IMG/VR virus record: IMGVR_UViG_2602041644_000008
Span: 1 to 37,809 of that record
DNA length: 37,809 nucleotides
Origin: a virus
Taxonomy: Duplodnaviria > Heunggongvirae > Uroviricota > Caudoviricetes
Strand: one strand, 5' to 3'
Position numbers and translations under genes: made by a program. Within the stretch, counting starts at the first letter, position 1; each line of letters begins with the position of its first letter. Below, piece after piece: positions 32,830-37,809 of the stretch. The notes under the pieces were generated by a model. That model was not told the DNA's origin. It worked only from the letters and a program-made list of their open reading frames with translations, and searched no databases.

Positions 32830-33174
32830 TCAGAACTCTTCGATGTTCCAGCCACCACCTGCTTTCTTTGGCTTAACCGTTACCCCGATGATTCGGAACG
32901 GATACTGATCTGCGGCGACTTTGGTTTTCACCCTGGCGTCGTCGGTCCAGAAACCTTTCACTTCGTGCAGTTCCATCTCGCCGGTGGCGAGCATCACAGC
33001 AAAATCGGGCGTATAGAACGTGTTGTCAGCTAACCGCAACTTGATACCCTCGAATCGATACCAGGCGATTTCCCCTGCACGTTTACGCTGCTCAAGGTGC
33101 TGGCAATACGCAGATTCTGTTTTGTTCATCTGGCCTGTTTTGAGTCGACCAAGAGCCTGCATCTGTTTTCTCAT
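32830..33174 (-). CDS. DUF1064-like protein (PD-(D/E)XK fold likely)
   Basis: Motif YTPDFAV...GEMELHEVKG; first gene after the replication module. Confidence 0.4.
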   Translation of the reverse strand: MRKQMQALGRLKTGQMNKTESAYCQHLEQRKRAGEIAWYRFEGIKLRLADNTFYTPDFAVMLATGEMELHEVKGFWTDDARVKTKVAADQYPFRIIGVTVKPKKAGGGWNIEEF

Positions 33175-33291: not shown

Positions 33292-34092
33292 TTACTTGAT
33301 AAATCCTGCCGCCTTTCCCCGCCTGTATTCCTCCATCAGCCACTGCGCCGGTGTTATTCCCCCCAGGGTAGCGGCGTTAGGCATACACCCGAAACTTCGC
33401 CCTGGTGGATGGTAAACGCCTCTCCCTGTGTCCGGAGGCGTACTCATGGGTTCTGGCTTTGCCTGTATGCTGATCACCGGATCGGGTATCTGCTGTCCGG
33501 AAGCCACCTTTTTCGCCCAATCATCAAGCAGCCTGCGCGCGTGTTTCTCAACCTCAATCTCGCTAAGCTGGCGCTGATACATTGCACGGCGGGTATCACA
33601 TACGACCCAGTACATAACCGGATGCCGCCACGGGAATCTTTCGGGACCACCAGGATATAAACTTTTTTCCTTGCTGTACCGGTGAAACTCCGCCATCACA
33701 TCGTCAATGGTGACGCCAAGAACCATCTTGCTGTCTTTACACCACTTGATAAATTGCCCTGGCGACGGCCAGAACGGAGATTCACTGGCGCGGGCGTGGC
33801 GCATACCAGCAGAAACCTGTTCACGGGTTCGGATCCCCCCTTCGGCAAACGCAGCAATCCACTGCTGTTTTGCAGCAACTTCCTGCTCTGGCGTCTTCAG
33901 GTTGGTTACCACTGCCGCCGGAAACAGTTGTTTCAACTGTTTGAAAAGGGCATCAACAAGCCTCTCTGCTGACATGTTCACTACGTTGTCATTGTTGGTG
34001 TACTGATGCTCATAACCTGACATGCGAGAAAGGGCTTCTCCGTCACGGTTTTGTATCGCGGTAAAAACGTTGTTCACAAGAAATCCTCCCAT
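33292..34092 (-). CDS. Replication protein P-like (helicase loader)
   Basis: Extended similarity to recalled lambda P: FPAAVVTNL...QWIAAFAEGGIRTREQVSAGMRHARASESPFWPSPGQFIKWCKD versus lambda FPASLANRD...QWVLAFRENGITTMEQVNAGMRVARRQNRPFLPSPGQFVAWCRE. Confidence 0.75.
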   Translation of the reverse strand: MGGFLVNNVFTAIQNRDGEALSRMSGYEHQYTNNDNVVNMSAERLVDALFKQLKQLFPAAVVTNLKTPEQEVAAKQQWIAAFAEGGIRTREQVSAGMRHARASESPFWPSPGQFIKWCKDSKMVLGVTIDDVMAEFHRYSKEKSLYPGGPERFPWRHPVMYWVVCDTRRAMYQRQLSEIEVEKHARRLLDDWAKKVASGQQIPDPVISIQAKPEPMSTPPDTGRGVYHPPGRSFGCMPNAATLGGITPAQWLMEEYRRGKAAGFIK

Positions 34093-34889
34093 GCTTCAGG
34101 GCTGTTCCAGTGCGGAACGTTGTTATCAGGTAATGTTGATTGCTTCTGTCTGCTAATCTGCAGCCGCCTTGCCAGCTTCTGCTCCCACTGTGCCTGATGG
34201 TATGCCCTACCCTCAGCCATCCAGTAAATTCTGAACTCTGCAAGTTCCTGTGCCGTTGGCAGACTGTCCAGGTAGATCCCCTGCAATGAGCTTTTCCGAA
34301 GAAAGTCATCTGATGGCTGCCATTGTTCATGCATGACAAATTTGCCTAATTGCCCTGGCCCACCAGGAGGAACAAAGTTATTCATCACGGCGTTGTTTGC
34401 GCCGGGGTCATGATGCACAGAATCCCCGTTTTTTGTCCTGCTCTCCCTCTCTTGGTTAAATGACTGGTTATATGACTGGTTCTGGATCCCGTTTTTGGGA
34501 TCATTCAACATCCCGTTTTTGGGATCATTCAACATCCCGTTTTTGGGTATATTCCCGTTTTCGGGAACATTACCGTTTTCGGGTTCATTACCCCCTTCCC
34601 GGTTGCCTTTAATGTTCCCGTTTTTGGTTATATTAAGAGAGAAAACCCGCACTCTTTTCGTCGCTCCCTTTCTCTCTCCGGTATCTGAAATAAGCCCCAT
34701 TTTCATGAGCGATATAAGCCCGGCCTGCACGGTTTTTTTATTCAGGCAAGTGTCTTTAACGAGGCGTTCTATGCTGGGGTAGCAGAGGTTATATTCATCG
34801 GCTCTGTCAGCCATCGAGAGCAGTATGAGCTTTAATGACGAGCTACCTGGATCTGTCTCCCAGGCCCAATCTGTTGCATGTCTGCTCAT
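34074..34889 (-). CDS. Replication initiator, lambda O-like, with internal origin iterons
   Basis: SD GGAG before the ATG; N-terminal winged-helix-like region; repetitive peptide (NGNVPENGNIPKNGMLNDPKNGMLNDPKNG) encoded by the iteron array; directly upstream of P. Confidence 0.6.
   Translation of the reverse strand: MSRHATDWAWETDPGSSSLKLILLSMADRADEYNLCYPSIERLVKDTCLNKKTVQAGLISLMKMGLISDTGERKGATKRVRVFSLNITKNGNIKGNREGGNEPENGNVPENGNIPKNGMLNDPKNGMLNDPKNGIQNQSYNQSFNQERESRTKNGDSVHHDPGANNAVMNNFVPPGGPGQLGKFVMHEQWQPSDDFLRKSSLQGIYLDSLPTAQELAEFRIYWMAEGRAYHQAQWEQKLARRLQISRQKQSTLPDNNVPHWNSPEAWEDFL
34486..34631. repeat. Origin iteron array inside the O-like gene
   Basis: Four good and two degenerate copies of ATCCCGTTTTTGGGAT-like dyad units at 18-24 bp spacing. 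Confidence 0.6.
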
Positions 34890-34904: not shown

Positions 34905-35105
34905 TCAGCTTGAATGTTGTGGGGAGGAATTAATCATGATCTGCTTAATCTCTGCCCTGATACGACGGTTTGATTCCATGGTGCACTCAACACAGTGTCC
35001 GTTGTAAACCCAGCGTTCACTGTCATGTCCGTGCTTACATGGTTTTCCGGTGTAGTAGCGTTTAAGTCCGCGCTTTGCGGCATCAATACGTGTAATGATT
35101 TCCAT
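34905..35105 (-). CDS. Small Cys/His-containing protein at the cII position (function unknown)
   Basis: ORF between cro-like gene and O; start ambiguous (35174, 35135 or 35105); motif CKHGH...C-x2-C. Confidence 0.3.
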   Translation of the reverse strand: MEIITRIDAAKRGLKRYYTGKPCKHGHDSERWVYNGHCVECTMESNRRIRAEIKQIMINSSPQHSS

Positions 35106-35209: not shown

Positions 35210-35233
35210 TGAAAAGACCGCCGGGTGGCGGTC
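35210..35233 (-). terminator. tR1-like terminator downstream of cro
   Basis: On the minus strand GACCGCC-ACCC-GGCGGTC followed by TTTTCAT. Confidence 0.55.
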
Positions 35234-35255
35234 TACAGAGGGTTGTAGCTGGATA

Positions 35256-35486
35256 TCATGAGTAGAAGAAGTATGCCAGTTCTGCTTTTGAGTGCAGCCA
35301 TTGTCTTGATTTACAGGCTTTAAAAAGCCCATTCATCAATACCTTACCTGGCATTTTGCGCTTACCTGTTAAGTGAGTCTGGATATAGTGACTCGTCGTT
35401 CCGGCTTCCTGTGCGAAGGCTTCACGCTCATCCGGAGTAAGTGCAAGCCAGTGCTTTTTGAAATCGAAATGTCCGTTATCGCTCAT
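35256..35486 (-). CDS. Cro-like transcriptional regulator
   Basis: 76 aa, HTH-like segment; divergent from the repressor gene across an operator-rich region. Confidence 0.55.
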   Translation of the reverse strand: MSDNGHFDFKKHWLALTPDEREAFAQEAGTTSHYIQTHLTGKRKMPGKVLMNGLFKACKSRQWLHSKAELAYFFYS

Positions 35487-35522
35487 AGCTATTGCCTGAT
35501 ATTTATTTCAGATAATAAATAT

Positions 35523-35537
35523 TCACCTATAAGGTAA
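35523..35537. promoter_or_regulatory. Operator TCACC-TATAA-GGTAA (OR-like site 1, copy 9)
   Basis: In the cro/repressor intergenic region; lies in the spacer of a candidate cro promoter (minus strand TTGATT / 17 bp / GAATAT). Confidence 0.55.
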
Positions 35538-35553
35538 CAAAAATCAAGGATAG

Positions 35554-35640: not shown

Positions 35641-36225
35641 ATGAAAAGTATCCAGGACGTCCGCAGGCAAAATCTCAACGACTTGATCGACCGTGAATTC
35701 AATGGTGTTCAGACGCGGATGGCTGAAAAACTTGGAACTCAGGCAAATCTGGTAAACCGCTGGGCTCTTGGCAAGAAGGTTATCGGCGACCAGGTTGCGC
35801 GAAAAATTGAAGCTGCCGCCAATAAACCCCGTAACTGGCTTGATATCGATCGCTCGCTTTCTCAGGAAGGTTTTCAGCCTGTCGGACCAAGCGACATTGG
35901 TCAACTGGCGGCTCACAACCTGGAACGCTGGATGAGCGAAAGCCGCGACCTTTCAACGCAGGGAAAACTTCACCGCGCATCCGGCGTCGCCCAGGTAACA
36001 ATCAGCCGCCTGTTAAACAATGAGGTCAGCGTTTCCATTTCCACCCTGGAGAATGTTGCATCCGCATTTGGGCGTCACGGATATGAATTACTGATTCACC
36101 CGCACGACCCCGCGACTATCAACTATGACCGCTCGCGCTACGCATTGTTACCTGAAACAGAGAAGGCAAAGATCGAAAGTTACATTGAATTTGTCATCAA
36201 CCAGAACGAAAAAAACAAACAATAA
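35641..36225 (+). CDS. Prophage repressor candidate, tandem HTH (XRE-type), no autocleavage domain
   Basis: 194 aa with two HTH-like segments (QTRMAEKLGTQANLVNRWALG and SGVAQVTISRLLNNEVSVSISTLENVA); no Ala-Gly/Ser-Lys protease signature seen; divergent from cro; followed by a terminator. Confidence 0.55.
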   Translation: MKSIQDVRRQNLNDLIDREFNGVQTRMAEKLGTQANLVNRWALGKKVIGDQVARKIEAAANKPRNWLDIDRSLSQEGFQPVGPSDIGQLAAHNLERWMSESRDLSTQGKLHRASGVAQVTISRLLNNEVSVSISTLENVASAFGRHGYELLIHPHDPATINYDRSRYALLPETEKAKIESYIEFVINQNEKNKQ

Positions 36226-36833: not shown

Positions 36834-37036
36834 AACCAACACTCCTCTCATTGCTGCGAGGTGGAAAACACAGCATCCGAGATATGGCAAAGATTCTTGG
36901 TATCTCAAGATCGAAGGTTTCTTGGTTCATCGCTGAGCTTGAACGTCGCAAATGGGTAGAGGTAACCAGGAGCGCAATATATTTCCACGATGGAACCAGA
37001 TCCAACAAGCAGAACGAATACAAGGTTAAGTTATGA
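36830..37036 (+). CDS. Small HTH DNA-binding protein
   Basis: 68 aa; HTH-like segment MAKILGISRSKVSWFIAELERRKWV. Confidence 0.45.
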   Translation: MKPTLLSLLRGGKHSIRDMAKILGISRSKVSWFIAELERRKWVEVTRSAIYFHDGTRSNKQNEYKVKL

Positions 37037-37581
37037 ATACTGGCATCTATTTCGACATCAGCAATGAGGACTACCACGCCGGTGACGGCGTGAGTAAGTC
37101 GCAACTAGACATGGTTGCCAAGAATCCGGCGCTTCTTAAATGGGTTCAGGCAGCACCAGAAGACGAAGAGAAAAAGTCTGCACTGGATATGGGAACCGCA
37201 TTGCACTGTCTGCTTCTGGAGCCTGGAGAGTTCGACAAACGCTTCATTGTTTCACCGAAATTCGATCGTCGGACGAAACAAGGTAAAGCTGACGAAGAGG
37301 CATTTCTTCGTGATGTGGCGGATATGGGGATTACGGTACTTGATGCCGAGCAGTGGCGGAAACTGGAGCTGATGCGTGATAGCGCAATGGCTCACCCGGC
37401 GGCACGCTGGATGCTGGAAGCACCTGGTTACTGCGAAGCATCAATGTACTGGAACGATGAAGATACTGGTGAGTTGTGCCGCATTCGTCCAGACAAATGG
37501 CTGAACGAGCACAACGTGATCGTCGACGTGAAAAAGGTTGCAGATATGGACCGTTTTGCATGTCAACGCCACGATGTTTGA
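37033..37581 (+). CDS. RecE/exonuclease VIII-like PD-(D/E)XK nuclease, probably truncated by IS insertion
   Basis: N-terminus GIYFDISNEDYHAGDGVSKSQL and IVDVKK motif fit the recombination-exonuclease family; ORF stops a few codons after the catalytic motif where IS-derived sequence begins. Confidence 0.45.
   Translation: MNTGIYFDISNEDYHAGDGVSKSQLDMVAKNPALLKWVQAAPEDEEKKSALDMGTALHCLLLEPGEFDKRFIVSPKFDRRTKQGKADEEAFLRDVADMGITVLDAEQWRKLELMRDSAMAHPAARWMLEAPGYCEASMYWNDEDTGELCRIRPDKWLNEHNVIVDVKKVADMDRFACQRHDV

Positions 37582-37620: not shown

Positions 37621-37809
<189 letters not shown>

Follow-up and report, generated by a model that had tools for sequence, protein, structure and literature searches.

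We report here that positions 34422-34638 of a 37,809-nucleotide (nt) stretch of viral DNA (Caudoviricetes; IMG/VR record IMGVR_UViG_2602041644_000008, positions 1 to 37,809; hereafter 'the window') very likely serve a phiV10/epsilon15-like phage as its origin of vegetative, theta-type replication; judged by sequence and by comparison with relatives, this origin would lie in the linker-coding middle of the gene for the replication initiator. Over 2.5 kb round the repeat array that marks this region the window shares 97.7-98.5% identity with Escherichia phages phiV10, YDC107_2, phiv142-3 and PAS61; relatives of the phiV10 type are epsilon15-like temperate podophages of the genus Uetakevirus, and the window itself is a phiV10-like Escherichia coli prophage. 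Every part of the initial interpretation open to checking by sequence is borne out, with two refinements, one on the family of the initiator and one on AT content. To our minds, the origin is of the ordinary lambda-type kind, albeit in a phage group without an annotated one; mild novelty is confined to a GAAYC repeat module that adjoins the iterons.

Iteron array within the initiator gene

A repeat search together with Tandem Repeats Finder (TRF) identified six in-register dyad repeats that span 34486-34630 and have the core ATCCCGTTTTTGGGAT on the + strand, in line with the initial annotation, which had placed four well-conserved and two degenerate dyad iterons inside this gene. They start on the + strand at 34486, 34510, 34534, 34552, 34570 and 34615 (spacings of 24, 24, 18, 18 and 45 bp) and carry, in the same order, 0, 0, 2, 3, 4 and 4 mismatches when counted by eye against the perfect 16-mer; each core is a dyad of the form ATCCC-N6-GGGAT. 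At up to 3 mismatches the 16-mer has four matches in the 37.8-kb window, all of them within the array and none elsewhere; shuffles yield a mean of 0.34, and none of 100 reaches four. The array (34486-34638) codes for amino acids (aa) 84-135 of the initiator, between its HTH_36 and DnaT-like domains, and translation of the minus-strand open reading frame (ORF; 34074..34889) bears out that the repeats encode a repetitive Asn/Gly/Pro-rich peptide (...NGNIKGNREGGNEPENGNVPENGNIPKNGMLNDPKNGMLNDPKNGIQNQSYNQSFNQ...).

GATC (Dam) sites are found at 34485, 34499 and 34523, that is three in 40 bp compared with a window mean of 3.8 per kb, and are part of both perfect iterons and of the junction with the adjacent 12-mers. 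Dam methylation or SeqA could, in principle, modulate origin firing. A consensus scan also returned terminator-like hairpins on the + strand (34496-34515, 34520-34539), each made from the GGGAT arm of an iteron, the ATCCC arm of the following one and a T5 run. We reject their reading as terminators since the sites are antisense to the gene and the total terminator-like count (4) does not exceed that in shuffles (3.0); the hairpins are probably a by-product of the iteron dyads. Coordinates of the iterons and of all other features are collected in the table below.

Features of the proposed origin region and the early operon in the window
Feature	Position	Strand	Sequence or remark
Iteron 1, first in transcription direction, degenerate	34615..34630		TTCCCGTTTTTGGTTA; 4 mismatches
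Iteron 2, degenerate	34570..34585		TTACCGTTTTCGGGTT; 18-bp period
Iteron 3, perfect dyad of its own	34552..34567		TTCCCGTTTTCGGGAA; 3 mismatches
Iteron 4	34534..34549		ATCCCGTTTTTGGGTA; 2 mismatches
Iteron 5, perfect	34510..34525		ATCCCGTTTTTGGGAT; within 24-bp unit of strain-variable copy number
Iteron 6, perfect	34486..34501		ATCCCGTTTTTGGGAT; last before 12-mer module
12-mer module	34446..34484	-	gene strand CAG AACCAGTCATAT AACCAGTCATTT AACCAAGAGAGG
Strand-asymmetric run	34422..34457	-	gene strand 83% purine, 3% T
Replication initiator gene, 271 aa	34074..34889	-	winged helix, repeat-encoded linker, DnaT-like C-terminal domain
N-terminal winged-helix coding region, aa 1-89	34623..34889	-	presumed iteron-binding domain
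DnaT-like C-terminal coding region, aa 180-265	34095..34352	-	presumed contact with P and/or single-stranded DNA
Lambda-P-type helicase loader gene	33292..34092	-	start ATG 34092 or, per phiV10 annotation, GTG 34077
66-aa Cys/His-rich ORF (KPCKHGHDSERWVYNGHCVEC), directly upstream of initiator	34905-35105	-	phrog_1081, function unknown
Intrinsic terminator, tR1-like position	35215..35234	-	8-bp stem, 6 GC pairs; annotated terminator in phiV10
Cro-like small regulator, first gene of initiator operon	35256..35486	-	phrog_35 'transcriptional repressor', 2.6e-12
pR-like promoter candidate	35512..35540	-	TTGTTA-17-TATTAT, consensus match only; upstream of cro-like gene
CI-like repressor gene, divergent from cro-like gene	35641-36225	+	

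12-mer module and purine-asymmetric run

Past the last iteron TRF reports the direct repeat ATGACTGGTT (34453-34481, period 12, 2.4 copies, 94% matches), so the two copies that had been noted next to the iterons are indeed there, and they are the local form of a GAAYC-N7 x3 element found across the family (see below). The 12-mers of the window read CAGAACC, then AACC and again AACC at 12-bp spacing, with the full GAACC in the first copy only. The 36-nt purine run after the 12-mers is more strand-asymmetric than all but 0.03% of 36-nt windows and ends in a degenerate, iteron-like ACAAAAAACGGGGAT (34422-34438).

AT content is 56% over 34441-34485 and 63% over 34453-34482, compared with 52% for the gene. 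A nearest-neighbour profile places a duplex-stability minimum at 34448-34487 (z=1.4-1.6 relative to the whole window), where stability per 40 bp is -48.7 kcal as opposed to -43.0 in the AT-rich tract of lambda; a further minimum lies at 34607-34646 (z 2.1). The segment sits beside the iterons as initially described, but 'moderately AT-rich' flatters its composition, and with minima as modest as these we reject the label of an AT-rich DNA unwinding element (DUE); what sets the segment apart is the conserved 12-mer repeat with the purine run behind it. The 12-mer module is probably the unwinding or helicase-entry region.

Initiator protein and P-like helicase loader

The initiator matches HTH_36 (aa 18-67, 1.6e-10) and DnaT (PF17948, aa 184-252, 1.1e-15) in Pfam as well as phrog_1032 'replication initiation protein' (3.2e-108). 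Its DnaT-like domain aligns with residues 85-170 of E. coli DnaT (E 1.7e-20; PDB 9zbt, 4ou6, 2ru8), a likeness consistent with host dnaT and dnaC descending from a phage initiator/loader pair (PMC5509034). Membership in the Phage_rep_O family does not hold: the match is to HTH_36 and not to PF04492, the family that lambda O and P22 gp18 match, and the C-terminus is DnaT-like instead of lambda-O type, with lambda O itself giving no DnaT match. The lambda O N-terminus has been described as HTH_36-like by HHpred (Brezellec et al. 2017, PMC5509034), and both the initiator and lambda O match phrog_678 and phrog_345. As these matches include the iteron-coded linker, homology to lambda O is remote and unproven, and we reject the initiator as a member of the lambda-O family on BLASTP and hhalign comparisons (see below). 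Hence, the term 'O-like' used in the initial annotation is apt for position, architecture and remote N-terminal similarity only, and not for family.

The case for lambda P is different in that the strong similarity claimed for the downstream protein is supported by Pfam (PF06992, E 1.5e-56; 191 bits at a cutoff of 26), by direct comparison with lambda P (31% identity over 202 aa, E 9e-36) and by phrog_109 'P-like helicase loader' (2.4e-92). By these matches the downstream gene is a true lambda P homologue, and its product would deliver host DnaB to the initiator-origin complex. The GTG start at 34077 overlaps the initiator stop as GTGA.

Further information comes from sister phage ZX5 which, like HEMP4 and TL-2011b, has its initiator replaced by one with a different N-terminal domain and with the DnaT-like domain alone being related (45% identity). 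ZX5 P is 81% identical overall and ~99% identical from residue 89 onward, its first ~85 residues having diverged. Since the ZX5 locus contains no match to the window iteron and differs in the N-terminal domain, the iterons travel with that domain. What has been exchanged is the initiator plus the P N-terminus; the DnaT-like C-terminus of the initiator co-varies with the P N-terminus in ZX5, which suggests that these two parts move as one co-adapted unit. Such an exchange fits lambda contact genetics, in which the C-terminus of O is reported to contact the N-terminal part of P (Furth, Dove and colleagues, 1978). A mosaic joint falls within the P gene (ZX5 locus L003, 593-2171, aligned with window 33292-34889). 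An equivalent iteron array in ZX5 was sought by repeat search and rejected, as only short two-copy matches came up. By eye, GTAACGC / GCGTTAC repeats and, after them, GAGGAAGAGGAAGAGGAAGATATATATAAAA can be seen on the gene strand of the ZX5 initiator at nt ~335-420, a position equivalent to the proposed window origin; this region may be ZX5's own origin with different initiator sites, which is suggestive yet unproven.

Conservation among close and distant relatives

Close homologues of the initiator are 98-99% identical outside the repeats and vary in length from 263 to 311 aa, a range set by how often the 24-bp PKNGMLND unit (2 to 8 times) and the 12-bp unit (2 or 3 times) occur; phiV10, for example, has the 12-bp unit three times, and phage BP9 has one 24-bp unit fewer. 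The repeats are thus far from absent in close homologues, the finding which the initial annotation had named as one that would speak against it: each of 78 complete initiator genes, taken from 80 near-identical phiV10-like IMG/VR loci (73 distinct sequences) and used for copy-number statistics only, has at least one perfect 16-mer and at least two loose cores. The array is also kept in the isolated, plaque-forming phages phiV10, phiv142-3 and PAS61.

For more distant relatives we used the N-terminal 95 aa in tblastn, which gave 123 phage records (in many of them the annotation reads replication initiation or O-like protein), and a one-genome-per-species scan that gave 61 loci, 59 of them usable. 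Of ten phage relatives, nine have an iteron array that starts ~270-300 nt into the gene, as do almost all of the 59 genome loci, with clear exceptions such as L110 and L154, which have only two repeats. These arrays, from Enterobacterales, Vibrio, Pseudoalteromonas, Marinomonas, Acinetobacter, Pseudomonas, Aeromonas and Desulfovibrionaceae, comprise 3-11 iterons, each array with its own differing core, at N-terminal identities of 28-87%. Iteron cores diverge along with the N-terminal protein sequence: relatives at 45-87% identity retain CC(C)-A/T-rich-GG(G) dyads (ATCCCAAAATTGGGAT in Edwardsiella GF-2, AACCCAAATTTGGGTC in Acinetobacter Acb75, GTACCGAAATTGGTAC in Ab105-2phi), and those at ~28-32% have unrelated repeats such as ACCCCnGCAGnAnATGC (x8) in Pseudomonas LESphi3 and GGGGCAGGAGCTGCCC (x3) in Shiga toxin (Stx) phage Min27.

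Relatives also bear on whether the DNA or the peptide is under selection. In GF-2, the motif is read as ACC CAA AAA CGG GAT in one copy and as GAT CCC AAA ATT GGG in the next, and among relatives it codes for TQKR in one copy and for PKNG in another; GF-2 and LESphi3 space their iterons by 17 bp, EPP-1 by 26, 33, 33 and 55 bp. The same DNA motif is thus kept in different reading frames, which selection on the peptide would not explain; it is the DNA that is under selection.

A GAAYC element past the last iteron

In its family form the 12-mer module is (C)AGAAYC-N7, present about three times after the last iteron whatever the iteron sequence and often with an A-run at the end; its consensus is CAGAAYCTAnCAA / AGAAYCTAnCA / AGAATCTAAAAA, and an Acinetobacter example reads CACAGAATCTACCAAAGAATCTACCAGTAGAATCTAAAAATAAAAAA. 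The loci (L095-L155, L005-L014) have the module ~350-500 nt into each initiator gene. Among 67 non-identical loci, GAAYC density at 350-500 nt into the gene is 0.5-1.0 per 50 nt as against ~0.09 elsewhere, so that GAAYC 12-13-mers are ~10-fold enriched precisely past the last iteron. At least two copies within 40 nt occur in 60/67 loci and at least three in 40/67, whereas the flanking DNA, although ~7x more was searched, gives at least two copies in 16/67 and at least three in 2/67. Copies are spaced by 12 bp (47 cases), 13 bp (32) or 11 bp (9) and, in 49 of 60 clusters, are read in at least two frames. Wherever a genome locus has a cluster (54 loci), it lies within the initiator ORF, and of the 50 loci with a downstream gene that is not P-like, 46 have one. 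The module is independent of iteron sequence, initiator C-terminal domain and helicase/loader partner.

Tentatively, and with more doubt than conviction, we propose that the GAAYC 12-13-mers are a sequence-specific unwinding or helicase-entry element of HTH_36-type origins in many proteobacterial genera, which would go beyond the notion of 'AT-rich DNA'. As the N-terminal winged-helix domain is the sole component common to all GAAYC loci, it may recognise the element, plausibly by binding it as single-stranded DNA. We found no description of the GAAYC element in the literature searched. That the 12-mers are iteron half-sites was considered and rejected as a general explanation: there is resemblance in some Acinetobacter loci (TACCAA) and none in the Marinomonas or Pseudomonas loci.

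Likeness to known origins

In keeping with the lambda ori likeness initially put forward, lambda (NC_001416, iterons 39034-39118 in gene O) has its origin in the interdomain linker of the initiator gene, and its iterons (ATCCCTCAAAACGAGGGA) have outer arms ATCCC...GGGAT and an A-tract centre in common with those of the window. In lambda and in the annotated P22 origin alike, iterons are followed in the direction of initiator transcription by a repeat or asymmetric tract, which is the order seen in the window; moreover, the AT-rich tract of lambda is purine-strand asymmetric (PMC5043065), as is the window run, and lambda also has a pR-like early promoter and, next to the initiator, a P-type DnaB loader with overlapping stop and start. 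The differences are that the window core has 16 bp and not 18-19 bp, that there are six iterons and not four, that the initiator has HTH_36 instead of Phage_rep_O and a DnaT-like C-terminus without detectable lambda O similarity, and that the downstream tract consists of AACC/GAACC 12-mers at 56-63% AT, unlike the far less stable A-rich tract of lambda, whose gene O has no GAACC.

The P22 origin (NC_002371, rep_origin 32840-32984) likewise has its iterons inside the initiator gene (18), whose product is also 271 aa long. Past the last P22 iteron there is one GAATCAGTCAAAC, which resembles CAGAACCAGTCAT of the window, and then A-rich ~12-mers with lambda-like ACAAAAGACAAT repeats; P22 differs in that gp18 is a Phage_rep_O protein, its iterons are of the TCGGTAAAAC type and its partner gp12 is a DnaB-like helicase, not a P-type loader. 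Stx phages 933W and P27 have six iterons, and natural variation in iteron number lengthens their initiators (Kozlowska et al. 2020, PMC7466680). In Stx phages, strong binding is confined to the iterons nearest the unwinding tract and is weaker at distal ones (PMC7466680), which matches the window gradient from perfect proximal to degenerate distal iterons, although these phages differ in having true lambda-O homologues, lambda-type iterons and an AT-rich tract.

Closest in protein architecture, being identical to the window pair, are DopC/DopE of Cellvibrionales and Oceanospirillales, in which a lambda-P-like protein comes after HTH_36 with a DnaT C-terminal domain, as described by Brezellec et al. 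(2017, PMC5509034). dopC, however, lacks iteron-like repeats and lies away from the chromosomal origin (PMC5509034), while the window has the mobile, phage-borne form with an intact array. RK2 oriV combines iterons with a DUE of 13-mers whose repeat sequence, number and arrangement matter, and its initiator binds one DUE strand (PMC5043065). Origins of this type resemble the window in having, beside their array of initiator sites, an unwinding element (a putative one in the window) of ~12-13-bp repeats; iteron plasmids differ by another Rep family, monomer binding, intergenic location and the usual DnaA boxes, none of which is seen in the window.

Proposed mechanism and alternative explanations

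By analogy with lambda and iteron plasmids, from which binding, 12-mer unwinding, contact between initiator C-terminus and P, DnaB loading and chaperone need are all taken over, the most likely scenario keeps to the lambda scheme. The initiator would be produced from the early pR-like operon, and its N-terminal winged-helix domain would bind the six ATCCC-A5C-GGGAT dyad iterons, probably as dimers, to form an O-some-like nucleoprotein complex on A-tract-bent DNA. The resulting strain may open the adjacent three AACC/GAACC 12-mers, which lie one helical turn apart, together with the purine-asymmetric run; lambda O is known to bind A/T-rich single-stranded DNA (PMC7466680). The DnaT-like domain and/or the initiator might then hold single-stranded DNA and/or dock the P-like protein by its N-terminal part; the P-like protein would deliver host DnaB, and upon release of P by host chaperones bidirectional replication could begin.

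Several points weigh against an origin at 34422-34638. The putative unwinding region, at 56-63% AT, is modestly unstable and in this respect unlike lambda. BLASTP of the initiator against lambda O gave no match, and when an 11-sequence profile of the N-terminus was compared with lambda O, hhalign returned an E of 0.043 at a probability of 1%, although that alignment, weak as it is, pairs the expected recognition-helix and wing regions. GenBank phiV10 has no rep_origin feature, nor did the non-subscription literature searched (an earlier description elsewhere is possible) contain an experimental or other account of an origin in phiV10, in epsilon15 or with HTH_36 initiators. Comparative loci are often related (many are from Acinetobacter), which means that the counts overstate independent support, and the iteron spacings in the window are all multiples of 3, which leaves the reading-frame argument to rest on the relatives. 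Finally, an insertion sequence (IS) in recET (see below) means that, its origin being intact or not, the prophage in its entirety may be defective.

The repeats might instead be slippage-prone, low-complexity coding sequence for a flexible Asn/Gly/Pro-rich linker, with the DNA itself having no role, and the array does encode a repetitive peptide, is spaced in threes and varies freely in copy number between strains as a neutral linker would. Protein coding, however, has no need of dyad symmetry, relatives keep the DNA motif across different frames at spacings of 17, 26 and 55 bp, the type of motif changes with the N-terminal DNA-binding domain and not with the linker or C-terminal domain, and in lambda and P22 the same position is taken by an origin, proven or annotated; we therefore consider a mere coding role extremely unlikely. 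That the array is a binding platform for another purpose (autoregulatory roadblock, handcuffing copy control, packaging or partition site) and the origin lies elsewhere seems very unlikely to us. While iterons of plasmids do serve autoregulation and handcuffing too (PMC5043065) and the adjacent DNA is not strongly AT-rich, the motif has no other copy in the window, conserved and helically phased 12-mers plus a strand-asymmetric run adjoin the array and resemble the regions at which lambda and P22 unwind, and gene order as well as helicase loader coupling match the lambda-type replication module. In addition, relatives with arrays do not conserve other upstream genes, the 66-aa ORF being one example.

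A relic that keeps its architecture and no longer fires, be it in the lineage or in the IS-carrying copy, might be suspected from DopC/DopE, where Cellvibrionales and Oceanospirillales have domesticated the HTH_36 plus DnaT_C / P-like pair and the pair has no origin function (PMC5509034), and from the IS21-family fragment that cuts recE in the window. We rate this as highly unlikely: unlike in dopC the iterons are intact, with two perfect copies, plaque-forming phiV10, phiv142-3 and PAS61 maintain the array, and the initiator and P ORFs are full length. Comparison with lambdoid ori regions, which the initial annotation had suggested as a check, points the same way as the preferred reading of 34422-34638 as an origin, since lambda and P22 show the same order of elements and lambda shares the iteron arms.

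As for its implications, the proposal places the so far unannotated origin of phiV10/epsilon15-like phages, and with phiV10 being a reporter phage for detection of E. coli O157:H7, origin and minimal replicon matter for engineering. A phage-borne HTH_36 plus DnaT_C / P-like pair that retains iterons complements the published iteron loss in domesticated DopC/DopE. For hundreds of proteobacterial prophages, an origin-prediction rule may be drawn up, namely that an HTH_36 initiator gene should have iterons ~270-480 nt from its start and, behind them, some three GAAYC 12-mers, and the comparative set points to a conserved candidate unwinding element. The textbook picture of lambda-type initiation is unchanged.

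Neighbouring genes and related records

On the minus strand, the order is pR-like promoter candidate, cro-like gene, terminator, 66-aa ORF, initiator, P-like gene and a DUF1064 gene, the terminator (35215..35234) sitting between the cro-like gene and the replication genes. The pR-like promoter candidate at 35512..35540 would drive the early operon through the origin. The 66-aa ORF (34905-35105) has a weak match to an endonuclease VII family and is conserved in phiV10 and epsilon15 and absent from other relatives with iteron arrays.

Towards the window edge, a recE-like PDDEXK gene (DUF3799; 37033-37581, + strand) ends after 182 aa and is directly followed by the C-terminal end of an IS21-family IstB (PF01695, 4.5e-14; 37621-37800, - strand) that reaches the edge. 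phiV10 has a 586-aa RecET fusion at the recE-like position, and an IS has therefore apparently inserted into recET of this prophage copy.

'Escherichia phage BP9' (L002, PP488543.1) is a 138-kb record classified as Vequintavirus, near whose end (133626-137102) lies a segment for immunity and replication of the phiV10 type; PH444 (115 kb) is a match, too. Both records are possible assembly chimeras or may reflect contamination by an induced prophage.

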